Assembly (NCBI GenBank): GCA_964016885.1
Contig: OZ024748.1
Span: 33,418,001 to 33,482,000, forward strand
DNA length: 64,000 bases
Source of the DNA: Eledone cirrhosa
Lineage: Eukaryota
Reading direction: 5' to 3'
Part shown: positions 20,050 to 61,287 of the stretch, one piece after another
How positions within the stretch are numbered: the stretch's first letter is position 1
Layout: each line of letters begins with the position of its first letter
Position numbers and translations under genes: made by a program
The notes under the pieces: model-generated
What the model saw: only the letters and a program-made list of their open reading frames with translations
What the model was told of the DNA's origin: nothing
The model's database searches: none

Positions 20050-20190
20050 CCCTTTAATGTTCAAACCGCCCAAAACTGGCCAGAATTCTCCACCTTTTTG
20101 TATTGAAAATGGCTGTAATTGGTCACTCAAACTGATGTTATGGTATTGTTCTCAAAATAAATACTTTCAAAATCTCATAGATTCGATATT
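20050..20190. mobile_element. piggyBac-like terminal fragment
   Basis: TTAA|ccctttaatgttcaaaccgccc resembles the terminus of the element at 22797-24010. Confidence 0.55.
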
Positions 20191-20580
20191 ATGTAAGATA
20201 AAACCGTTACTGTGAAAATACAATAGTATATAGAGAGTAATGTAATGTTATGTGAGATATTATGTGAGGTAAAGCCTTTACTGTGAAAATACAATAGTAT
20301 ATAAAGAGTAATGTAAATGTTATGTTAGATATGTAAGATAAAGCCTTTACTGGGAAAATTCAATAGTATATATAGAGTAATGTAAATGTTATGCGAGATA
20401 TTATGTGAGGTAAAGCCTTTACTATGAAAATACAATAGTATATATAGAGTAATGTAAATTTTATGTGAGATATTATGTGAGGTAAAGCCTTTATTGTGAA
20501 AATACAATAGTATATATAGAGTAATGTAAATGTTATGTGAGATATTATGTGAGGTAAAGCCTTTACTGTGAAAATATAAT

Positions 20581-20761
20581 TGTTTCTACTTTAGGCACAA
20601 GGCCAGCAATTATCCAGTGCATTACTGGTACTTTATTTTATCGACCCCGTAAGGATGAAAGGCAAAGTCAACCTCGGCGGGATTTGAACTCAGATCGTAA
20701 AGGGACGTAACTATGCTGGAAAGCATGGCGTCCGACCCTCTACTGATACTGCCAATCCACC
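20581..20761 (-). mobile_element. tRNA-derived SINE with 13-bp TSD
   Basis: TSD gtgaaaatataat at 20568-20580 and 20762-20774. Confidence 0.9.
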
Positions 20762-22260: not shown

Positions 22261-22735
22261 ATGCGTGCTTGTGTGTATATATATGGGTGTGTGTGTATAT
22301 GTGTGTCTGTGTGTATATATGTGTGTATGTATATATGTGTGTGTATGTGTGTATATATGTGTATATATATATATGTGTGTGTGTCTGTGTCTGTATATAT
22401 ATAAATATATATAGTTAGAGAGGTGTGTATATAATAAATAATGTATATAATCTACGCCTAATCGTGATTATAACTTCTACTTTGCAGTTTACAACTGTAG
22501 CTGGCAACTGTGATGTTGACAAGAATGTAGTACTCAATATAGGGTGCATGATAGAGAGTAGCATTGAGGAAGAGGAAAATACATAATGAAAAATACACCA
22601 ATATATATATAGTATATATACATACATACTATATATATATATATATATATAAAAGGTAAACAGAAATAACAACACAATCGGTAGACTTTATGGAAGGGAT
22701 ATATTAGGTTAACGATTGATATAGCAGGAAGAGGG

Positions 22736-22771
22736 TGTTAACGTTTCAGACGCTAGTCCTTCATCAGAAGA
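22736..22771 (-). ncRNA. Minimal type I hammerhead (family A), catalytic core intact
   Basis: Minus strand reads tctt CTGATGA a ggac tagc gtct GAA acgt t aaca (G-U at the helix II base, one helix I mismatch). Confidence 0.78.
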
Positions 22772-22796
22772 AAGAATGAGAAATAAAATAGATTAA

Positions 22797-24010
22797 CCCT
22801 TTAGCATTCGCATTCATTTTCAAACGTCATGTTTATCTGTTAAAGTAGAAACAATTATTTTCAGTTAATCAGAGTCGGACGCCATGCTTAACTTTGCCTT
22901 TCATCCTTACGGGGTCGATAAAATAAAATACCAGTAATGCACTGGGTAATTGCTGGCCCTGTGCCAAAGTAGAAACAATTATTTTCAGTTAATCATACTC
23001 AAAAGGGTTATCAATTTTATTTGTTTGTAATTTTCTTAATTTTCTATGTGCAGGCTTCAAATTTTGTCAGTAGATGTTTAAATATCAATAATTTACAATT
23101 ATATAATTTTACCTGATTTTTTTGGTCAAATTTGACTTTTATGGGCAGGTGAAATTAATTAATAGGGGCATTTGAAGTATCAACCAGATGCAAATACTAG
23201 TTTAATTTTAAATACATTGTTTTCGGCATAATACTTGATATATAAGAATCACTAAACCTTATATCAGTATTCCAGTAATTCCACAGTCTTGGAAATTGTT
23301 TTATACCGAACATAATATTTACGCTAAAAAATGCTTGCATTTCTGCAGCATCTGTTGGTCGCCATAACAGATCGTGTTTTCCTCGATTTGAAATCTGTTG
23401 TTGGGCATATCGATTAATCTCTTCTGCCACAACATCGAAGAAGGTTTGTGGTAAAAACAAAAAGAAATAATCCAGTGCTTTAGCATCGGGAGCTAATGTG
23501 TGTTGTGGACCAGTATTTTGAATAAAATAGGGAACATATATTGGTGTGGTATTTTTCAACCACATGGCTGTAATATTTTCAATGGCGCCCTGGAGACCTC
23601 CTTCGTTTTCACTTTCAAAACAAAAATCATCGTCGGATGAAATTTCAGAAATATAAACATCAGATTTATTTGAAGATAAATCACTAATATTATCATTTGT
23701 TTCTTGTTTATTCTGAATGTCATCATGTGTAAAACCTTCAAAGTCAGTATCGCTAATTTCATAAGCCATGTTGATACAAAAGAAAAGTTTGTTGCACTTT
23801 CAAAGTTAAAAAAACACTTGTTGTTTTAAGTTGTTCCACTATATTAAGTGTTAATTTTCGCGGTAAGGGCCTAATCTCGCAGCAGTCTCGAATTGACGAG
23901 ATTTTGATGATGGTTTGTTTATTTTTAGAACAAATTTTTAGTGTGAGTGTTTTCGGGCGGTTTAAACAAAAGAAGGGGAAATAATTTCGGGCAGTTTGAA
24001 CACTAAAGAG
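22797..24010 (-). mobile_element. Internally deleted piggyBac DNA transposon, unit 1 only
   Basis: TTAA at 22793-22796 and 24011-24014. Imperfect TIRs ccctttagcattc/ctctttagtgttc. Contains a SINE fragment at ~22845-22982. Empty site at ~60706-60712. Confidence 0.88.
23197..23769 (-). pseudogene. piggyBac transposase N-terminal fragment (PGBD-like)
   Basis: Acidic N-terminus, then ALDYFFLFL..VAEEINRYAQQ..WRPTDAAEMQAFF..G..P..NYW. Truncated before the DDD core. Confidence 0.85.
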
Positions 24011-24095
24011 TTAAGGGGACGGGTAGGATGGAATTGGAAAAAATGTCTTTAGATAAAAATAATAGGTCCATTCATGTTGACATCTCTTGCAAAAC

Positions 24096-24130
<35 letters not shown>

Positions 24131-24138
24131 ATATATCA

Positions 24139-26103
24139 ATGAAAGTACAGTAGCTAGAGTCAGAACGGGATGGAAAAAGTTCAGAGAGCGTATACCACTA
24201 TTGGCCGCTAATGGGTTCTCTCTAAAAATGAAAGGCAGGCTGTATGATGCCTGCATACGAACAGCAATGTTACATAGCAGTGAGACCTGGGCATTGTGTG
24301 CAGAGGATATACGCAGACTGGAGAGGAACGAAGCTTGCATGCTCTGCTGAATGTGTAATAGTAATATACATGAACGGCAAAGCATAAACGAATTAAGGGA
24401 GAAATTAGGAATAAGAGGGATGAGATGTTGTTTACTTGAGAGAAGACTACGTTGGTACGGTTACGTGATGCGCATGAAAGACTACAGCTGTATAAAAAAG
24501 TGCAGGGCGATAAAAATAGACGGTAGCCACGGAGTAGGCAGACCCAGAAAAACCTGGGATCATCATCATCATCATCACCGTTTTACGTTCTTCCACGCTA
24601 GCATGGGTTAGACGGGTTGTCCTGTTGTGGGCAGTGTCTGGTCGGGTGACCATGCCTTGCTCATAGAGGAACTGATTTGGCTTGATTTCTACAGCTGGAT
24701 GCCCTTCCTAACACCAACCTCATTTACAGTGAGTGCTGGGTGCTTTTTCGTGGCGCCTACACGTCCACTTTACAGTGTGGGCTGGGTGCTTTTTTGCATG
24801 GCACCTCCACGACCACCTTGCGGTGGGGGGTGTGGGGGCATATTGTTTATATGCTTCAGCTTGTACCCATGGGAGGTCGGGTACTCTGTATTACTGTGTG
24901 ACGCCAGAGGTCACGGTCGTGTGTCATTGCCTTTGAGAAGTGTAATTGGGTAAGGTCCGCTTTTATCACCTCATCCCAGGTCATCTTGGGTCTCCCCACT
25001 CCGCGGTTTCCATCAACTTCTAGTGCTCTGCACCTTTTTATGCAGCTGTCATCCTTCATACGCATCACATGCCCATACCAGCGCAACCGCCTCTCCTGCA
25101 CACAGCATTTGATTCCTCTTATGCTCAGTCTCTCTCTCAATTCATTTATGCTTTGTCGTTCACGTATATTACTGTTACACATCCATCGGAGCATGGAGGC
25201 TTCGTTTCTCTCTAATCTACGTAAGTCTTCCACCTTCAACGCCCAGGTCTCACTACCATGCAACATTGCTGTTCGGATACACGCATCATACAGTCTGCCT
25301 TTCATTCTGAGGGAGAAGCCTTTTGCAGCTAGCAGTGGTAGTAGTTCCCTAAACTTCTTCCATCCCGTTCTTATCCTAGTTATTATACTTTCTGAACACC
25401 CACCTCCGCTGCTAATTCGGTCACCTAGGTAGTAGAAGCTGTCTACTGTTTCTACAGAGTCCTCCCAGAGATTTGTGGTACTTGTTTCCTGTGGCTGTTT
25501 GCTGCTTGCTGTCTCAGCACAGCTGCTGCATGTGAAGCCTACATTCTTAATTAAACTTCCTAAGATCCCGCTACATCTCTTGAGTACCCATTGTTTGCAT
25601 TTGATGACTTGATAAATTCCGACCTCACACACTTACACCTCTCCAAGACAATGTCACTGGACCTAGATCTTTGGCGCTACACAGTAATACAGAAGACCCA
25701 CCTTGCCTAAGTGCAAAGCGAAACCTACAGTCAGTAGGCACCTCTAACAAAAATACACTCCTGTCCCACTACCCCCACCCCATCCACACCACCCCCTTCA
25801 ATGTGAAGTTATGTTGGTACCACAACATCCAGTCCGAAACGAATGAAGTCGTGTAGGTGTCACGACAAAAAAAACACACCCAGTCCACGCTGTAATGTGG
25901 CTGTGTAGGTAACACGGTAAAAACCTCCCAGTCCACACTGTAAACGTGGTTGGTGTTAGGAAGGGCATCCAGCCGTAGAAAACCCGCCAGACAGTCCTAT
26001 ACGAGCAGGACAACCAATCTTGCCTCAAGTGGGAAAACTCCCGTCCAAACCCTTGCAAGTGTGGTAGATGGACGTTAAACGATGATGATGATGATGATGA
26101 TGA
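24139..26103 (+). mobile_element. RTE LINE 3' fragment (subfamily A) interrupted by an antisense RTE
   Basis: ESTVARVRTGW..RPRKTWD|DLINSD resumes at 25603, with a (GAT)n tail. Empty site tcaatgatattaat at ~60861. Confidence 0.92.
24561..25603 (-). mobile_element. RTE LINE 3' fragment (subfamily B), nested antisense
   Basis: ORF 24856-25632. Near-identical to 6511-7500. Confidence 0.93.
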
Positions 26104-26122
26104 TATTAATAAATGGAAACAA

Positions 26123-26221
26123 TATTTATAAAACCATATTTATTCTATTATATATATTTCAAGGGTACCAAAACTTCGGTACGCTCTCATCAGATGAAAT
26201 ACAAAGTTTGTTTTATAAATA
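26123..26221 (-). ncRNA. Type I hammerhead ribozyme motif (family E) 3' of the ZNF array, core intact
   Basis: Minus strand reads tatttataaaac..tatttcat CTGATGA gagcgtaccgaagttttggtaccctt GAAA tatata T A atagaata..gttttataaata. 12-bp outer helix I, long helix II, palindromic helix III, ATA triplet. Confidence 0.8.
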
Positions 26222-26529
26222 GTGACATACCTAGGAATGATACCTTAACGGTTCAAGTTTCTCCTGGATAGTGAAAGGAAAGAGAGAAAAAGAGAAGAAA
26301 GGAAAAAACAAATATTTCAAATTATTTTCATGAATATGCAGATGATAATTTACCACAAATATTACAGTGATATGGCTTTTCTCCAGTATATATATATGTT
26401 TCTATGTAGTTAATGTAGCAATGAAAGAGAATAATTTCTCCCCAATATCACAGTGGTATGTCTTCTCACTCATATAAATGTCTTTGTGTTTAATTAATTC
26501 AGCATTTTGAGATAAGAGATATGACTTTG

Positions 26530-27752
<1,223 letters not shown>

Positions 27753-35592: not shown

Positions 35593-35635
35593 GTCAAAGT
35601 TCTTTCGTCACACATTCTGTGACCTCTTCAGTGAC
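35593..35635 (-). ncRNA. Minimal type I hammerhead (family D) in PLE pseudo-LTR
   Basis: Minus strand reads gtca CTGAAGA g gtcaca gaatg tgtgac GAAA gaac T T tgac. Confidence 0.8.
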
Positions 35636-35819: not shown

Positions 35820-37400
35820 CTATTTAATTTTGGTTGTAATTCTTTTGTTTATTGCCTCTGTGATTTGTCTAAACATTGCGCCTTTTCTGTGTGTAGTTTC
35901 TATTTTTATTTCTATGTTCTCTAATTTACCCTTATGTTCTATTTTAGCATGTTGGTAGAGTACAGATGATTCTTTACTATCTTGAAGGTCTCGCCAGTGT
36001 TCATTTATCCGTTCCCCTACACTACGAGCTGTCTCACCTATGTACACTATATTTTTATCTCTACATTGTCCTCCAGTACATCTTATGCTATATACTACAT
36101 TTCTAGTTATACAGTTAATATGGGGGCTTAATTTACAGGTTATACATTTCTTATCTATACAGGAGGCTCTTTGAAAAGGGTATGTCTTGCTAATAAGTGT
36201 TTTTATGGAGGTACCTGGTCTTTCTACTATCTTACTATTGAGTTTATGTTTATCTAGGGCCCTTCTAAATTTGTAAGCTAATTCACCTCTCGGGGTTGTA
36301 TCGATGAACATTACACTCTGGTATTTATTGCTATCATACCATGAGTTTATTCTATTAGCCTTATTCCTAGTTCTTTCTATTCTATTCCAAAATTTGCTCC
36401 TATACAAGGGGCAGGTCCCATTTATGTCATTATTTACCATTTTTTCCCATTTGGTTCTGGCTCCTTTATACACTCTGATTTTATCTCTCTGATTGTAACC
36501 AGAGAACTGCATACGGTGGATGAAGTGTTGTATGTGTCTCTCTAGTTCTTCGGGGTTGCACATGCGGGACACGTTTCTCATCACCCGTACCAAATCCGCA
36601 ATCAGTATGTTGATTTTGGTATGGTCCGAAACAGCTGCGTTTCGGTGGATAAGATATTTGGAAGTCATGGGTTTGGCATAATGGGAATGGAGGATTTGTC
36701 TTTTGTTATTAATGGTATCTAACCAGAGCGCTGTGTCTAGTACAGGTAATCGATGGTTGGGGTGTTTGCTTGGGTAGTCTATAGTAACTCTAATACTCTG
36801 GTGGATGGAGTTAGCTATTTGCTGGATGCTTTCCATTGTGTTTTTCTCTAGCTCCTGACTGTTCTCTAGTGGGGGTGTCTTAACTACGATGTTTATATCA
36901 TCAACGTAGCGGGAGTACATTATCAGGGTTAAGGGGTCTTCTAATTGTTCTTTAAGTTTAAGTTTAAGTCTACTGTCCCACCATACCATGAATAAGTTAG
37001 CTATGTCGCCTGCAATGATAAGACCAATGGCTGCTCCCTCCTCTTGGGCATATGTTTTTCCATTAAATTTGAACATATGTTCCTTAAGGGTTAATTTTAT
37101 GCTGTCCCCCACCGCATGTGCAATCATTTTCTTTAGTTCATCGTGGTTTTCGGGGGTCCGTATGGCTCTGGTCCACCCATTCCATCTATCTGTGTGGGTT
37201 TTCTTGGCCATTGAGGTAATGGTAGGTGGTCTGCCTCTTGCTGGTCTTGTAGGGCACAGGTTGCTAAGGTCATATGTGTCTAGATAATTATTACTATAGG
37301 TAAGTTTAAGTAGGAGTCCCAGCTCACTGGTATCAATCCCACGGAAATCAACATTGCTCTCACTGATCATTTCAATGCATTTCTCCACAGCAAAATCCAC
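35820..37400 (-). CDS. PLE reverse transcriptase-GIY-YIG endonuclease (5'-truncated, terminal frameshift)
   Basis: QEEGAAIG, YSRYVDDI, LPVLD, Cx4Cx2C linker, NVVYSIRC..YIGETAR..ERINEH. Confidence 0.9.
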   Translation of the reverse strand: MDFAVEKCIEMISESNVDFRGIDTSELGLLLKLTYSNNYLDTYDLSNLCPTRPARGRPPTITSMAKKTHTDRWNGWTRAIRTPENHDELKKMIAHAVGDSIKLTLKEHMFKFNGKTYAQEEGAAIGLIIAGDIANLFMVWWDSRLKLKLKEQLEDPLTLIMYSRYVDDINIVVKTPPLENSQELEKNTMESIQQIANSIHQSIRVTIDYPSKHPNHRLPVLDTALWLDTINNKRQILHSHYAKPMTSKYLIHRNAAVSDHTKINILIADLVRVMRNVSRMCNPEELERHIQHFIHRMQFSGYNQRDKIRVYKGARTKWEKMVNNDINGTCPLYRSKFWNRIERTRNKANRINSWYDSNKYQSVMFIDTTPRGELAYKFRRALDKHKLNSKIVERPGTSIKTLISKTYPFQRASCIDKKCITCKLSPHINCITRNVVYSIRCTGGQCRDKNIVYIGETARSVGERINEHWRDLQDSKESSVLYQHAKIEHKGKLENIEIKIETTHRKGAMFRQITEAINKRITTKIK

Positions 37401-37411
37401 GTCAATCCCAC

Positions 37412-38197
37412 ATGTGCAACCCCGAAGAACTAGAGAGACACATACAACACTTCATCCACCGTATGCAGTTCTCTGGTTACAATCAGAGAGATAAAATCAG
37501 AGTGTATAGAGGAGCCAGAACCAAATGGGAAAAAATGGTAAATAATGACACAAATGGGACCTGCCCCTTGTATAGGAGCAACTTTTGGAATAGAATGGAA
37601 AGAACTAGGAATAAGGCTAATAGAATAAACTCATGGTATGATAGCAATAAATACCAGAGTGTAATGTTCCTCGATACAACCCCTAGAGGTGAATTAGCTT
37701 ACAAATTTAGAAGGGCCCTAGATAAACATAAACTCAATATTAAGATAGTAGAAAGACCAGGTGCCTCCATAAAAACACTTATTAGCAAGACATACCCTTT
37801 TCAAAGACGCCCCTGTATAGATAAGAAATGTATAACCTGTAAATTAAGCCCCCATATTAACTGTATAACTAGAAATGTAGTATATAGCATAAGATGTACT
37901 GAAGGACAATGTAGAGATAAAAATATAGTGTACATAGGTGAGACAGCTCGTAGTGTAGGGGAACGGATAAATGAACACTGGCGAGACCTTCAAGATAGTA
38001 AAGAATCATCTGTACTCTACCAACATGCTAAAATAGAACATAAGGGTAAATTAGAGAACATAGAAATAAAAATAGAATCTACACACAGAAAAGGCGCAAT
38101 GTTTAGACAAATCACAGAAGCAATAAACATAAAAGAATTACAACCAAAATTAAATAGAAAACATGAGTGGGACAGCAACATCACAACTTACAATTAA
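37412..38197 (+). CDS. PLE thumb-linker-GIY-YIG fragment (inverted copy)
   Basis: Near-identical to the C-terminal half of ORF 35820-37400, and keeps the intact end QPKLNRKHEW. Confidence 0.88.
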   Translation: MCNPEELERHIQHFIHRMQFSGYNQRDKIRVYRGARTKWEKMVNNDTNGTCPLYRSNFWNRMERTRNKANRINSWYDSNKYQSVMFLDTTPRGELAYKFRRALDKHKLNIKIVERPGASIKTLISKTYPFQRRPCIDKKCITCKLSPHINCITRNVVYSIRCTEGQCRDKNIVYIGETARSVGERINEHWRDLQDSKESSVLYQHAKIEHKGKLENIEIKIESTHRKGAMFRQITEAINIKELQPKLNRKHEWDSNITTYN

Positions 38198-38398: not shown

Positions 38399-38441
38399 GT
38401 CACTGAAGAGGTCACAGCATGTGTGACGAAAGAACTTTGAC
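38399..38441 (+). ncRNA. Minimal type I hammerhead (family D)
   Basis: gtca CTGAAGA g gtcaca gcatg tgtgac GAAA gaac T T tgac. Confidence 0.8.
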
Positions 38442-43129: not shown

Positions 43130-46100
43130 TTAACGGTAATTCACATATTGTGCCAACTTGGCGGGCCAATGGACGCGTCGTCCGCTTCTCGTGACTGGAG
43201 ATGAAACAGGTGGCTCGCTGGGACAGCAATCTGTTGGAGTTTCTGGTGTAGGGACTGTAACAGTATCCAAGATAGCTTTTTTAAAATCTGTCCACGCTGA
43301 CAGAATTCTGTTTACCATCTAGATCGAGAATAAAATATTTCGGATATTTTTTTAGAACACGATAAGGGCCAGAATATGGAGGTCGAAGTTGAGCTGAGAT
43401 GGTGTCGTTTCGAACGAAAACGTGTGTCCAATCTTTAATGTCTGAAGGTACGTGTGTGGCCGTGTTCTGTTGACGGGCGCTTGCAGGAGCAAGGTGAGAC
43501 ATATATTGTCGAAGACGATGTACGTATGATCCTGGGTCTGGAACATCCTGAGGAGAGATGGGAGCAACCATCTCACCAGGTAGAACCAGGGTGGTGCCGT
43601 ACACTAATTCTGCAGGTGTGTGTCCGAATTCCTCTTTAACGGTGGATCGAATGCCCAGAAGGATGAGTGGTAGGTATTCAAACCAGTGGGTCTTGTCTGG
43701 ATATGCTTTTATTGCAGCTTTCAATTGGCGATGGAATCTTTCCACGAGACCATTAGCTTGCGGGTGATAAGCTGTCGTGCGGATGTGTTTACATCCTAAC
43801 AGGCGAGTCAGTTCCCTGAAGAGGTGGGAATCAAATTGGTGTCCTCTGTCCATTGTTATCCTCGCTGGGGCGCCATAACGTGATACCCAGTGTAAAATCA
43901 AAGTTTTAGCGACTGTTTCCGCTGAAGTATCATTTATGGGAAAAGCCTCAGACCAACGAGAAAATCGATCTATGCAGGTGAGCAAGTGTGTGTAGTTCTG
44001 TGATGGTGGTAGAGGTCCGACGATGTCGATATGCACATGATGAAAACATACATCAGGTTGCGCGAGTGTGCCGAGTGGAGTTTTGATGTGTCTGTGGACT
44101 TTGGCTTTCTGGCAGGCAATGCAGCTCCTGGACCAGTCGCGCACGTCCTTGTTAATGTTAGTCCACACAAAACGAGCAGAGATGAGTTTCTGTGTAGCCC
44201 GGATCCCCGGGTGAGACAAGCAGTGTAAAGCAGAAAAAACTTGTCGACGATGCATCTGTGGTACGTACGGTCGTTCATGACTGGTAGAAAGGTCGCACCA
44301 AATTTGTCCCGGAGAAGGAATAAGAACTTACTGAAACTTGAGGGATGGCGAATCTCGGAGCTTGATAAACTCTTCGTCAGTCTCTTGGTCAGCTGCGATC
44401 TGTTGAAGGTCGATGCCTGAATGCACATGTATTGCGTTCAGCTGGATTCGGGACAGGGCGTCGGCTGCTACGTTGTCTGATCCCTTGATATGCCGAATAT
44501 CAGTTGAATATTGGGAGACAAAATCCAGGTGTCGGAGTTCTCTCGGTGAATGTCGATCAGGTTTGGTACGGAACGCATAAATTAATGGTTTATGGTCCGT
44601 GTAGATCATGAAATCTGATCCTTCGAGCATGTGCTGAAAATGCTTAACCGAAAGATAGGTTGCCAAGTGTTCGCGGCCAAAGGTACTGTATTTCGTTTCT
44701 GCTGGTTGCAACCGCTTAGAAAAGAAGGATAAGGGTTGCCACACGCCGTCGACATGTTGTTGTAGAACGCTTCCAACCCCCGTGTCTGATGCGTCCACTA
44801 GCAGCGAAAGAGGAGTGCCAGACCCGGGGAAAACGAGCATGGAAGCGTTCGCCAACATTTCCTTCAGGCAGTTAAAAGATGTTAATTCTTCCTCGTTTAG
44901 AGTGATCTCTTCGTTTTTGCGAGTCCGGTTACGAAGAAGGTCTGTGAGGAGTCTGGCTGCGTCGGAACAATGAGGGATAAACCGCCTATAAAAATTCACC
45001 AGACCGAGGAATTCACGCAGTTTCCGAAGTGATGTAGGTGCAGGAAAACTGCGGATAGCTTCTACTTTCTCGGGAAGTGGACGAATGCCGTCTTTATCGA
45101 TGATGTGCCCGAGAAAGGACAGTGAAGGAACGCCGAGACGGCACTTGCTGGGGTTGGTGATGATACCGTACTCAGCCAAACGTCGGAAAAGGAGATCTAA
45201 GTGCTTCTCGTGTTGATTCTCGGAAGCACTTGCTACCAGTACGTCGTCAATATACGCGTATACGAAGGGTAGATCGCGTAACACGGTGTCAATGAACCAC
45301 TGAAAAGTTTGTGCAGCGTTGCGCAGACCGAACGGCATTCGCAGGAATTCGAATAAACCGAACGGTGTTGTGATTGCGGTCTTCGGAATGTCTGCAGGCT
45401 CCATAGGTATCTGGTTATATGCACGCACCAAATCTACCTTGGAAAAGATACGTGCGCCTTGCAGAGAGGCAGAAAAATCGTGCAGGTGAGGCACAGGGTA
45501 ATTATCGGGCACTGTAGAATTGTTAAGTGCACGATAATCCCCACATGGTCGCCAATCATTCTCGTTTTTTTTTGGAACAACGTGTAGGGGTGCAGACCAG
45601 TTGCTGGAGGAAGGCGAATGATTCCGAGGTCCAGCATGTGTTGGAACTCCTGCTTGGCGATTCTCAATCGGTCTGGGGGCAGTCTCCTTGGTCGGGCAGC
45701 TGTGGGTGGTCCCTTTGTCTCGATGTGGTGCGTGACACTATGCTTAATAGGACCATCCTTAAATACCGGGCGAGTGATGTCTGGGTATTTCTGGAGAATG
45801 CCGTTGTACCGCGAAGGCTCTGATTGGCAAATTACAGGGCTCACTGGATTGCGTGGTAAATATACCTCTCACAGTGAGGTTTGTGGTGGTGTCAATAAGC
45901 CTCCGGTTCTTCATATCCACCAGAAGGTTGAAGTGGTGGAGAAAATCGGCTCCTAGGATAGGGGTCGGCAGGTCTGCCACGACAAACACCCATTGAAAAC
46001 GCCGCCTCAGGCCTAAATTGAGGGTCAGAGACTTCTCCCCGAAAGTCGGAATTGACGATTGGTTCACTGCCTGCAGAAAGAACAGGGTTGGATGTCTTTT

Positions 46101-46280
46101 GCCCGAGATTAGTGAAACAGGAATAACACTAATCTGAGCTCCTGTATCCACGAGGTAACGGATGCCTGTCGCCTGGTCGTTAATAAAAAATAGACGACTT
46201 TTCTTTTCAGTACCAGGGGTGAACGTCGTCGCTAGGCCCTGGTCTGCCCGTTTCCCTGGGTAGTATTCTGGAAAGAGCAC
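43130..46280 (-). pseudogene. Gypsy pol (protease, RT, RNase H, integrase), frameshifted
   Basis: LVDTGA; [13 protein letters not shown]; VDASD, YTDHKPL; H..HPG..CIAC, HIDIVGP, NGLVER, PYSGPY. Split across several ORFs. Confidence 0.94.
46193..46256 (-). promoter_or_regulatory. -1 programmed ribosomal frameshift signal (slippery heptamer plus pseudoknot)
   Basis: G GGA AAC in the gag frame, 6-nt spacer, stem ACCAGGG/CCCTGGT and crossing stem GACGAC/GTCGTC. The -1 frame is the protease ORF. Confidence 0.85.
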
Positions 46281-47101
46281 GGGGCCCTACACTTAGATGC
46301 CCGAGTGCCGAACTCCTCGTGATACCAGCAGAGGTTACCAGACACACGATTTTGACTGGGACTTCTCGATCTTTGACGGTGAAAGGGTCTGGACCGACTG
46401 ATGCTGCACCGCCGGTGTGTTTGCAAGGTCAGGCTTTCTAATTGGTTTGAGAGGGCTTTGATTTGACCAGCCTGCTCTCTGATCATAGCCCGCAGCTCTG
46501 CAATCTCGGAGGTGGAGTCCGAAGACGCTACGTAAGGGTTCGTCCGACGATCTACCTGTGCTACTGAGGCAAAAGGGTTTGATACCTCAGCGATCTTATC
46601 TGCGACACTCGCCAGTTCCTCCGGGGTTGCTGACTCGCTAGTCGACGCCAGGATGCCCTGCATCGATAAGGGCAAGCGCTGTATGAACAACCGTTTCAGC
46701 AGATCTTCTGAAAGCGGCTGATCCTCCATCAGCTGTCTCATCTTTCGCAATAGTTGGGACGGTTTTCTGTCCCCCAATACTTCTGCAGACACGAGTTGGT
46801 TGAGTCGTTTCTGCTGTGACGCGGTCGTCCGCTTGACCAATTCCTTGCAGAATGATTCATATGACACCGTGCCTGGCGGTGCCATGACGAGGTCACTCAC
46901 CTCAGCCAAAACTTCTGGCGGAACAGATCCAATGATGTAGGTGAGCTTTGTGGAATCGCTCTTAATTCTGTTCGCGGGGAATTGCGCTTCTATGTGAGCG
47001 AACCACAGAGTCGGGTCGTTAGACCAAAATACGGGGACTTTTAATGTTAACGCCGCTTGTGTGGTTGGTATCTCGGCTTCTGTCGTTTGTGACATGTCCA
47101 T
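46232..47101 (-). CDS. gag: Gypsy Gag
   Basis: 289-aa open ORF with KVPVFW..DPTLWF, LGDRKPSQLL and CWYHEEFGTRASKCRAPC. Confidence 0.92.
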   Translation of the reverse strand: MDMSQTTEAEIPTTQAALTLKVPVFWSNDPTLWFAHIEAQFPANRIKSDSTKLTYIIGSVPPEVLAEVSDLVMAPPGTVSYESFCKELVKRTTASQQKRLNQLVSAEVLGDRKPSQLLRKMRQLMEDQPLSEDLLKRLFIQRLPLSMQGILASTSESATPEELASVADKIAEVSNPFASVAQVDRRTNPYVASSDSTSEIAELRAMIREQAGQIKALSNQLESLTLQTHRRCSISRSRPFHRQRSRSPSQNRVSGNLCWYHEEFGTRASKCRAPCSFQNTTQGNGQTRA

Positions 47102-47160
47102 GTTGATATTTTCTTAGGTGCTGTCTGGTTGCGCGTTCGACTCACGTTTGGGTCACCAAT

Positions 47161-56204: not shown

Positions 56205-59200
56205 CTAGCAGTTTAGCCCGGTGTTGCTCGGGTTTGTTCATTTGCTATGAAAAGTTACAAACAGGTAAACGTAGCTTGAAAGCGCATAAGCTTATCAATT
56301 AAGTGCATAAAGCAGTTGAACCGGTTATTAATAGTTACGAATCAATGAAGGGTTAATAATCTTCCAATAGCGAATTTAGTAGACCAAAGTTGCAAGATGG
56401 TGGCCCTGATGCCGCTGGGTGTCAGATATGTCCGCTATGGGTGACCCTACCAGTTTTCCAGACGGCATAGCTCCAACACCTGCACCAACATCTATAGCAC
56501 CTCTTTGTAGACGATATTGCGTGTCATCCCTTGAGGAGTGTAAGCAAAAAGTCCATTCCTGCTCCCTACGTGGGAACAGGCAACATAAAGTTGGCCATGA
56601 GAGAAGCATGGCTTCCCCAAATGGATGCCCGCCACCGACAATGTTTGCCCTTGTGACTTGTTAATGGACATGGCAAAACATGGTCTCACCGGAAATCAAA
56701 CGGGATATCTGACGCCGAGGGGAAAAGGTTCATCCTTGGAATGAAAACATTCTCCCCTCTCCCACACCCCGTTACAATGGTGGCCTCAATCAAGTGGGGC
56801 GTCAGTGACTTGATGACTATGCGAGTACCATTGCACTGCTTTGGTGAACGCAAGTTCCTTATTAGCATAATGGGACAGCCCACCCTAAGCTTAAGAATGT
56901 GAGGTGGGAGCCCTGGGGGCTCAAGGGAATTTAATAACTCAACCGGATAATTAACGATATCGTCGGGGTCTGACGTCCGGTCGATAGATTTGAAGATATG
57001 TTCTTTACCGGGAATTTTCTCAATCAGCTGCTCGTTAATAAAATTAACCATGGTATTTTTCGGAGCAAGGATGGCTCTTTCGCTGAGCCAATCGAGGTTT
57101 TTAAAGTTAGATGAGACATCAGGAAAAACTGCTTCCCAAAGGTCAGAAGGGCTGCTCACAATGTTGTACAGGAAGTCAATTGCTATGCAGCCCTTGTCAT
57201 CCCGCAGGGACCTTTCCCTCACCAAGTGCTAAAATATTCTGAGCAAATGCTGCAGACATGTCGTCACCATGCAAATGAGCACGCATATTTGTGCTCAAGT
57301 ACAAATTCTTCACCTGGAGCCACAACATGGACGACTTAAGACAGACACACACTTCATCAGCTCTTGTCCCTTTGGGGATGACAGGCAGCGTTTGCCGAAA
57401 ATCCCCTGATAGCAGAAGGGTTACGCCACCCATAGGAGCCGTAGAATCCCTAATGTCTTTCAGCGTCCTGTCGAATGCTTCAAGGGCACCCTTGTGTGAC
57501 ATTGCGCACTCATCCCAAACAATGAGGCAACATTTTTTGAGAACCAGAGCTTCGTGTGAACTCTTGCTGATATTGCATGTTGGTGTCTAAGTTTTTACTA
57601 AATCCAAGGGGAGTTTAAATGTTGAATGTGCTGTCCTACCTCCCGGCAGCAAAGTAGCAGCGATCCCGGACGATGCAATGGACAACACAATTTTGTTCTC
57701 CTGAAGAATCTTAGCGAGAATCAATTTCGTTACAGAAGTTTTTCCGGTACCCCCAGGACCATCAAGAAAGTAAATACCCCAGTCTGATTTTGAACCGCGT
57801 CAATGATAGTTAAATAGGCCAACCTTTATTCCGACAGAAGTTTGGGCTCATTTTCCTCTAATTATTGGGAAAGAGATTCGATGTCATATGCTGTTTCCCG
57901 CAACAAATCCGGGGCCAACGTGTTAGCTTCTTCTCTGACGGTTGACGGCAAGCCATACGTCGCCAACTCACACCCACCCATGTCGAAGAGGGCGTCCTCG
58001 ATATCAATGAGTGCCCTGTTGTAGATAATGTCACTGTAACCAACTTCCACTGAAGTATACTGCAGATGAGCCAGGCGCAGGAAGTCCTCAGACATGAAGT
58101 CTCTGTACTTGACCCATAAAGATTTGGGATCACCCAATTCACACTTTTGAAGCAAAATAGCAAAGAGTTTCCTTAGACCTTTAGGTGATTTCAACAAAGC
58201 ACCCTCTGCTAAAGTGGAATCCCATTGCGAATCATCTTCCAAAAGACGACGCTTAAAGCAGGCTTCCCGGTACGTATCACATATTTCTCTATCGACAGTT
58301 TTGATGTCCTGAAAACTTTGTGGGCCTACAACTTCATGCAGAAGAAGGCGGAGATGAAAGCACTCATGCTGACTTGGGGGTACAGTGTAAACCCTTCCAA
58401 GACAGCTGTCAAATTTTACACCAGGATATCTTTCAACAACCTGACCTGACTTTCTTCGCACCCAAGTGTTTTTCGACCATATAAAGTAGGATGGAACCTG
58501 GGGGTACACAATTGTTTGTGCAAATGTATCGAACTGGCAAAGTTTGAAGAAACCCGTCAGAGTGGTCTCTTTCGGATCGGCGGCCAACTTGGCGGCGGTT
58601 TAGTCTGTAAAGTAAACCCTTTGCCCATTTTCCAAATGTACCGCAAGCTGTATGATGGCGGAGTGACATTGGTGTAGGGGTAAACCAAATAGGCGCCAAA
58701 AAGCTTCATTGCTACTGATGTACCGCCCCGCCAGGTATTGTGACCTTGTCCCTACTATTTACAGCTTGGAATGCGAACATTGCGGCATCAGAGCCCTTAT
58801 TTACATATTTGCATATGTATTTTATTGACTTGACGGAGTTGCAAAACTCAACGTTGATGTGGGTGTTGAACATCTTCAAGAGAAGCGGGCAGTAAGGGAC
58901 CACTCATCTATTGTCAACTTGACCTCTCCTTACTGTTGTGGTGAAGCCACCGTTCTCGAGCCGTCTCCGCCTGTACAGGGGGTACTCGTCGCCACCAGTC
59001 TGAGTCTCGTCAACAAATTTTTTGGGGTATCCCTTACTGCACGACCCCCCCCCACCCACCCTTTCAGACACGTGCGATGTTCATTAGGACCCGATGCACA
59101 CGGACCATGAATCATGTTACCTTTGACGATGTCATGTAATTCCTGGTCAGTTGCTGGGTTAGGGATTTCAGCTGAAATGAAGCTGTCTATGGCATTTGAA

Positions 59201-60379
59201 TTGATTTTATCAGCTAACCAAATCAAAATGTGAGCATGTGGCAGCCTTCGTTTTTGCCAATCGACGGTGAACATGTCACATTTTACAGCCCCAAATACCT
59301 TAACCTTTTTGATTAAAGCCATGAGTTTAGCCAGTTTCAGTCTGAACACTCTGTCAATGAGGTCATGTCTGTTCGAATAATTTTGCCCAGGAAAAAGTTC
59401 ACGGGTTACATTCCGATTCATATGTCTATAGCATTAATCTGTTATATGAAGTGTTATTTTGCGGGCTGTTATTTGCAATAAGCCGATTGAAAATGCCCCA
59501 GATAAGCTGTATGTCAATACGGAACGCTCCACTGCAGTGTTGTCATATAGGGAGTGAAGAGCGACAGAGAGTTGGTTGTTTTATCAATTCATCTGTTGCT
59601 TTTGAATATTTGTTATTTGATGTAAAATGTAACTGTGTAAAATATAACGTTGAGAGAGCAGTATGTATTTAGTGTTATCGGCTTTTTAAATTTTGATATT
59701 TGATGTATGAGTGTCGTTATGACTGTTTGTTGTTGTATAAAATGATGTATTGCTTAGTTATCAAAGTTTTTTTCGCGGGATGATCTATTATATACAGAGA
59801 GAAGAGTGCCGGATAGAGTGAAGCTAGTGTTAAACCTCGAAGCATGAAGAGAGTAAAGCAGTTAAATTATAGAGAGGAGGAATAATCTATTGTAGAGAGG
59901 GGGAAGAGCGACGGAGAGAGTAAAGCTATGGTTGTTGTATAAATCGATGTGTTGCTTAGGTTTCAAAGTTTGTGTCGCGTTCCTTCAAAAGAATTTTGTC
60001 GTTGCTCTAAATTGTAATGGTGATAGAGTAGTAGACGGAGGCAGTAACCTTTTAAAGAGAGTTGCAGAGGAGATTGAGGGGGGAGTAGAGGAAAGGATGA
60101 ACCTTTTAAAGAGAGTTGCAACATGTAGTTTCATATATTTTTGATGGTAGTAGTGAGAGGAATGAAGCGTGTAAGAGAGAGGGTTACAGCATGTATTTAG
60201 TTTTATCGATTTTTTTTCATAGAAGCAGGAAACTTTTGCCAAAAATAATTATGCGTTGACCTGCCTCGTAAATTTGTAGCACATTGGAAAAAAAATCATC
60301 AAAATCGGTAGAGAAATGTGGAAATGCATAAAAATCATACACACACGGACAGACATCTACCGTTTTATATATACAGAGA
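56205..60379 (-). mobile_element. Helitron with decayed Rep-helicase, unit 2 only
   Basis: 5'-TCTCTGTATATATAAAA and 3' hairpin cccgagcaacaccggg plus CTAG. Exact empty site ataataaa|taatgtatata at ~22431-22449, with no TSD. Confidence 0.95.
56492..59421 (-). pseudogene. Helitron Rep/PIF1-helicase fragments
   Basis: HUH motif LPHAHILIW, KYICKYVNKG, FLDGPGGTGKT (~57740-57770), GDFRQTLPV, AMSINKSQGQTL and FSHGQLYVA. Many frameshifts. Confidence 0.93.
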
Positions 60380-60863: not shown

Positions 60864-60886
60864 ATGATATTAATAAATGGAAACTA

Positions 60887-60982
60887 TATTTATAAAACCA
60901 TATTTATTCTATTATATATATTTTAAAGGTACCAAAACTTTGGTACGCTCTCATCTGATATACAAAGTTTGTTTTATAAATA
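60887..60982 (-). ncRNA. Decayed hammerhead (family E), orthologue of 26123-26221
   Basis: Core reads CAGATGA and AAAA. Outer helix I and helix II are retained. Confidence 0.7.
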
Positions 60983-61287
60983 GTGACATACCGAGGAATG
61001 ACTCCTTAACGGTTCAAGTTTCTCCTGGATAGTGAAAGGAAAGAGAGAAAAAGGGAAGAAAGGAAAAAACAAATATTTCAAATTATTTTCATGAATATGC
61101 AGATGATAATTTACCACAAATATTACAGTGATATGGCTTTTCTCCATTATATATATGTTTCTATGAAGTAATGTAGCAATGAAAGAGAATAATTTCTCCC
61201 CAATATCACAGTGGTATGTCTTCTTACTCATATGAATCTATTTGTGTTTAATTAATTCACCTTTTGAGATAATGCGATATGACTTTG

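Follow-up and report, generated by a model that had tools for sequence, protein, structure and literature searches.

A hammerhead motif behind the zinc-finger genes of Eledone cirrhosa, most likely a neutral remnant of a Penelope-like element

Downstream of a C2H2 zinc-finger (ZNF) gene of Eledone cirrhosa lies a real hammerhead motif, designated HHR-1, which is most likely a neutral remnant of a Penelope-like element (PLE) carried along by a young segmental expansion of ZNF genes. The window in which we studied it is the entire 64,000-nucleotide stretch that was analyzed (contig OZ024748.1, positions 33,418,001 to 33,482,000), and its features are collected in Table 1. As we picture the history of the motif, a PLE terminal repeat bearing the hammerhead was likely inserted once behind a ZNF gene, through what would have been target-primed reverse transcription into AT-rich DNA, the 5' end being lost. 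Segmental duplication in a fairly quick burst, to judge from a star-like tree, would then have given rise to tandem units of 28-35 kb and to copies on other chromosomes, and most of the duplicated ZNF genes would have become pseudogenes. The ribozyme was likely copied passively with the gene, without selection for its retention. Judging from the literature, its original role would have been in the PLE's own RNA, where it probably acted as a dimer or was aided by the protein of the element; at the ZNF loci its cleavage would be weak or absent.

Table 1. Positions of the principal features in the window
Feature	Position	Strand	Remarks
HHR-2, minimal PLE-type hammerhead	22735..22772	minus	core start 22767, predicted cut after 22740
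Downstream flank that most paralogues have straight after the PLE and its (TA)n	24011..24100	minus	in 25 of 30 other paralogues
LINE fragments	24130..26104		inserted later at the (TA)n run that follows the PLE, window copy only
PLE 3' end (pLTR part), 5'-truncated, 246 nt	26100..26345	minus	contains HHR-1
HHR-1, type I hammerhead motif	26123..26221	minus	core and three helices from sequence
AATAAA inside helix I	26139..26144	minus	5 nt 3' of predicted HHR-1 cut; motif match only
ATTAAA, candidate poly(A) signal upstream of HHR-1	26489..26494	minus	motif match only
C2H2 zinc-finger gene, unit 1	26530..27752	minus	frameshift near 27650, further stops before 324-aa stop-to-stop frame (27504-26530)
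Unit-2 copy of PLE fragment and HHR-1	60864..61106	minus	U4>A (60956), G12>A (60924), 3-nt deletion in helix I

Structure and position of the hammerhead motif

HHR-1 is on the same strand as the ZNF frame, and the distance from the ZNF stop codon is 309 nt to its 5' end, 381 nt to the cut and 407 nt to its 3' end. The original prediction of a sense-oriented hammerhead about 310-410 nt past the stop was therefore correct. The 3' UTR location stays putative, as the prediction had termed it, with an ATTAAA upstream of the motif at 26494 and a frameshift near 27650 in this ZNF gene. The motif has the attributes of type I, namely CUGANGA, GAAA and UH arranged around three helices, with its ends in helix I. 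The core is made up of CUGAUGA (26193-26187), GAAA (26160-26157), U16.1 (26150) and A17 (26149), and the predicted cut site is 3' of A26149. All 12 pairs of the distal part of helix I are present, and an internal loop separates it from the proximal part, which is paired at seven of eight positions (there is a C-A mismatch at 26196). Helix II is paired at 10 of 11 positions, with a single C-C mismatch, and helix III is the palindrome AUAUAUAU. These assignments agree, at the level of the sequence, with what had been described earlier: a 12-bp distal helix I, a helix II of about 10 bp, intact CTGATGA and GAAA, and a cut after 26149. At 10.1-11.1 the window copy, like most others, has a G-U pair and not G-C.

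The motif is beyond chance expectation: the window was block-shuffled 200 times, and no shuffled version contained one as good. Its folding z was -2.7. A search with Rfam returned no match in the window at the gathering score and no hammerhead family at the HHR-1 locus at E values up to 10. As a monomer the window copy is predicted to misfold: in the minimum-energy structure GAAA is hidden by pairing with the 5' strand, the first pair of helix I has a probability of 0.002, and the active-like fold is predicted to lie 4.2 kcal/mol above the minimum. Homodimer folding gave a minimum of -47.9 kcal/mol in which the palindrome was unpaired, in models of a kind that leave hammerhead cores unscored.

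A second copy of the motif, in the other ZNF unit of the window (unit 2), had been said to keep its stems and to bear two core mutations. The mutations are there (U4>A and G12>A); the claim for the stems does not hold in full, in that the 3-nt deletion leaves proximal helix I with five of its eight pairs.

A Penelope-like source

The HHR-1 segment is part of a dispersed PLE family. When 26500-26105 was used as a query against the animal's own genome, 40 of 4470 candidates were scored; among these 40 matches were 30 loci that included the ZNF part and 10 that covered only 26345-26105. At 26345 the PLE fragment meets a degenerate ZNF repeat, with a few bases of microhomology. At the 10 loci lacking ZNF sequence, a discrete 246-nt segment, matching at 91-93%, runs on upstream into sequence that these loci have in common, and a 24-nt pattern taken from just 5' of the segment marked at least 84 places of the free element in the same genome. 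Two loci (L035 and L031) harbor an element of about 3 kb with a long frame upstream of the terminal repeat. The nearest Atlas clusters to this frame were of the HTH_animal, GIY-YIG and RVT_1 families (score 0.93-0.95), and a GIY-YIG-like stretch, read by eye, follows it in shifted frames; Pfam left the PLE frames of both loci unrecognised. Copies of the element end at (TA)n runs or go on into a common tail, which is present in five free copies; several copies are arranged as inverted pairs, and inverted partial ends are present as well. Because the upstream RT/GIY-YIG frame, the (TA)n ends or tail and the inverted pairs all match PLE anatomy, we identify the HHR-1 segment as a PLE terminal repeat (pLTR), that is, as a repeat downstream of an RT and GIY-YIG frame (L035, L031) with dispersed, 5'-truncated copies.

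Much about HHR-1 is familiar from the metazoan PLE hammerheads, as they are described by Cervera and de la Pena (2014, PMC4209133), where hammerheads of metazoan pLTRs are reported to cleave poorly alone. Like them, it is of type I, has a large helix II and a small palindromic helix III, lies in a terminal repeat and comes from a family in which truncated elements have left numerous solitary copies, with some inverted pairs. It departs from them in having G-U for G10.1-C11.1 (a pair that the same paper gives as highly conserved, not invariant), in having no extra unpaired base after A9, in a helix I composed of 8-bp and 12-bp parts, and in having a copy that was multiplied with a host gene. 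The resemblance extends to PAc (Poseidon, Anolis; PMC11167929), likewise a pLTR hammerhead of an RT and GIY-YIG element with AT-rich targets and an optional tail after the pLTR. A difference is that the PAc hammerhead was assayed in vitro, where its cleavage was assisted by protein and was dispensable for insertion. Finally, HHR-1 is a PLE-related type I hammerhead, as are those of animal non-LTR retrozymes (bioRxiv 10.64898/2026.07.22.740005), although it is single and not in a short tandem array, and its family has coding copies. As retrozymes that overlap exons tend toward 3' UTRs according to that preprint, the placement of HHR-1 past a ZNF stop codon is not unusual.

On the neutral reading, then, HHR-1 is ordinary, one more PLE hammerhead. 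A literature search by title and opening of the abstract, with subscription papers and bioRxiv supplements outside its reach, brought up no paper on a ZNF-linked PLE hammerhead in octopuses.

Other sequences of this kind were also seen. Diverged relatives (82-87%) of the HHR-1 pLTR, with helix II paired differently, are found near ZNF-linked copies (L007:2905-3037 and L013:1097-1278). Within the window, hammerhead-like cores at 35631 (minus) and at 38403 and 62795 (plus) lie beside RT/GIY-YIG-like frames (35820-37451 and 37367-38197) and probably represent a third Penelope-like family, in an inverted arrangement.

Copying together with the zinc-finger genes

The motif had been expected to accompany other paralogues, and indeed it does. 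The pattern of the ZNF-PLE junction recurs at 29 places on chromosomes C7, C8, C9, C12, C18, C26 and C27, and when the junction pattern and the genome search are taken together the ZNF-linked loci number 31, on these seven chromosomes and with one common junction. We aligned 94 copies, consisting of the 31 ZNF-linked ones and 63 free copies drawn from 60 loci (10 from the genome search and 50 of the 84 pattern places), and built a tree from 89 of them, five short copies being excluded. The 28 ZNF-linked copies in the tree formed one branch, with support of 91/88 (not starred). The tree of these copies is mostly star-like, and its end branches, near 0.02, are as in the free copies. Given the common junction and the one branch, a single insertion that was copied with the gene, and copied fairly rapidly, fits best; the modest support for the ZNF-linked branch counts against it. 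The PLE fragment is a convenient marker: it ties together the 31 copies of a young ZNF expansion that spans seven chromosomes, and gives that expansion a date. The ZNF-linked copies on C7 and C26 are at most 0.4 Mb from a contig end.

How were the copies made? The original prediction had raised the idea that the PLE end enabled retro-mobilisation of ZNF sequence. Spread over seven chromosomes, joined in a star-like tree and broken for the most part, the copies have an appearance that retrotransposition of the ZNF gene, driven by the PLE end, could produce, and similarity to the window copy does stop exactly at 26100. Copies of a retro-mobilised gene should, however, end at the PLE 3' end in unrelated flanks, and 27 of the 30 other paralogues have downstream DNA in common (25 with the flank listed in Table 1 and two with sequence further on); the remaining three had nothing collinear within the 4.7-5.1 kb compared. 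Alignments break off at 26100 because LINE fragments, which we take to be RTE-like, were inserted in the window copy; the other paralogues pass through (TA)n into the very flank that recurs in the window at 24100. Some copies have much longer stretches in common. Five loci on other chromosomes were compared over about 50 kb each, and downstream collinearity extended for some 16-19 kb (C26 with C9), 15-17 kb (C27 with C18) and 10 kb (C7 with the window), the sparser chains among which may include chance repeat matches. Upstream, collinearity extended for some 3-5 kb, with ends that differ between copies, and the tandem units in the window are 28-35 kb apart. Because the common DNA continues for kilobases past the PLE end, the ZNF-PLE copies appear to have arisen by duplication at the level of DNA, and we judge retrotransposition of the gene to be extremely improbable.

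Many of the paralogous units also have in common a short tandem repeat with a period of about 70 nt (20185-20583 in the window). In unit 1 a DDE_Tnp_1_7 transposase fragment (23197-23799, minus) lies between the PLE flank and a second hammerhead, HHR-2.

HHR-2, which the original prediction had overlooked, is present in 27 of the 31 paralogues, in the sense orientation with respect to the ZNF gene and, in most of them, about 130-190 nt downstream of the PLE end; the window copy has been displaced by 3.3 kb by insertions. It belongs to another hammerhead family, dispersed genome-wide. A coding partner was sought at 10 free loci and found at none (there was one weak, unrelated RT match). HHR-2 decays too: 17 of 27 copies retain an intact core, and changes occupy 13 of 295 core cells versus 140 of 4153 flank cells, one of the core positions being a CpG. 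Members of the HHR-2 family occur in the window at 22767, 15847 and 49112 (all minus), with two insertions of the family in the duplicated ZNF unit.

Decay of the ribozyme and the state of its host genes

Among the ZNF paralogues the HHR-1 core decays at a neutral rate. The 12 core positions of the ZNF-linked copies bore eight substitutions in 346 cells, as compared with 216 in 6878 cells elsewhere in the segment (p = 0.52), and the core changes in these copies were each confined to a single copy. With CpG sites left out, eight single-copy changes were observed in the ZNF-linked core versus 5.2 expected at the flanking rate, and 10 versus 8.2 expected in the core of the free copies. The core was intact in 21 of 28 untruncated ZNF-linked copies (three others are truncated within HHR-1) and in 43 of 61 free copies. 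Variants found in four or more free copies occupied 32 of 124 columns 5' of the ribozyme versus 10 of 99 inside it, and this shortage of common variants within the ribozyme therefore points to constraint while the element transposed. Thus, HHR-1 was likely constrained during transposition and not after its insertion beside the ZNF gene. Of the readings put forward in the original prediction, the neutral PLE remnant is the one upheld, with a neutrally decaying motif located in the pLTR of a dispersed family of PLEs; the prediction had itself listed such decay among the outcomes that would speak against a functional role, and the core mutates no less than its flanks. A point against our explanation is the youth of the family (end branches of about 0.02), as a result of which selection that is weak, or confined to one or two genes, could be missed.

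The host genes are in poor condition. The unit-1 gene is likely a pseudogene, and a ZNF frame that runs uninterrupted between the leader and the usual end is found in six of the 31 paralogues, the other 25 being broken. Pooled dN/dS for the ZNF leader and last finger was 0.63 (p = 0.03; the last-finger alignments may be mis-anchored), and since this value shows some purifying selection, some members are probably real, functional genes. Fully paired copies of HHR-1, as defined by thresholds of our own, accompany one of the six uninterrupted and 10 of the 25 broken genes (p = 0.38), so that the association between intact ribozyme and intact ORF looked for in a survey of the paralogues did not appear. 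Large losses from HHR-1 showed a different trend, affecting three of the six uninterrupted versus three of the 25 broken genes (p = 0.07 in a post hoc comparison). The trend, which is our sole hint that the host is affected at all, would fit harm rather than strict neutrality and runs opposite to retention for regulation.

These results bear on the proposal that HHR-1 has been exapted as a regulator, in which selection would keep on and off variants that tune the ZNF subfamily and paralogous mRNAs would cleave as dimers. The motif is found in nearly all paralogues and its helix III is palindromic, as the proposal would have it. Its presence, however, follows from common descent, its core is unconserved and changed in single copies, and most of the host genes (25 of 31) are broken, with no association with ORF integrity. 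We therefore hold exaptation to be very improbable; with neither core conservation nor a link between intact ribozymes and intact ORFs, the ribozyme-controlled ZNF subfamily with on/off variants that had been suggested finds no backing. A ribozyme that is merely inherited, and so is present in every paralogue, can mimic a conserved UTR element.

The rodent Clec2 hammerhead offers an instructive comparison (PMC2950038). HHR-1 is like it in being sense-oriented and in following a stop codon. The Clec2 hammerhead is discontinuous, occurs in known transcripts, has been found in several mammals and is active in reporters, whereas HHR-1 is continuous, transposon-derived, unconserved and mostly situated behind broken genes. 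Two properties of a ribozyme of the Clec2 type, core conservation beyond the neutral rate (here, among paralogues) and an intact host gene, are absent from HHR-1.

The trend in large losses invites another explanation, namely that the ribozymes are harmful passengers. HHR-1 and HHR-2, if included in ZNF transcripts, would remove the poly(A) end, so that genes keeping them would be weakly expressed and would decay and functional genes would tend to lose them. Both hammerheads are in the sense orientation, AATAAA follows the predicted HHR-1 cut by 5 nt, a fully paired HHR-1 is found with one of six uninterrupted ORFs, and large losses (three of six versus three of 25) are distributed as expected of harm. 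Moreover, the 3' UTR hammerhead of Clec2d can lower reporter expression by 80% (PMC2950038). The p values are nonetheless 0.38 and 0.07, picked post hoc (the latter becomes 0.04 with a four-finger gene classed as broken), and ATTAAA, upstream of HHR-1, is a candidate poly(A) signal. Furthermore, metazoan PLE hammerheads are reported to be poor cutters by themselves (PMC4209133) or to depend on the protein of the element (PMC11167929). We thus regard harm as unlikely. A bolder proposal, which we consider decidedly unlikely, is that two transposon hammerheads behind the founder gene cut the mRNAs of a 31-member ZNF family, so that duplicates are born dampened and survivors are those that shed the ribozyme, which would thus filter the birth and death of genes. 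Should ZNF mRNAs indeed be cleaved by these ribozymes, the paralogues would constitute a natural allelic series for testing PLE hammerheads outside their element.

Finally, we note two further elements on the minus strand of the window. Gag-, protease-, RT- and integrase-like frames, recognized by eye, occupy 43281-47113 and presumably belong to an LTR retrotransposon. Broken Rep/helicase-like frames at 56686-59433, which we take to be Helitron-like, are found in unit 2 only.
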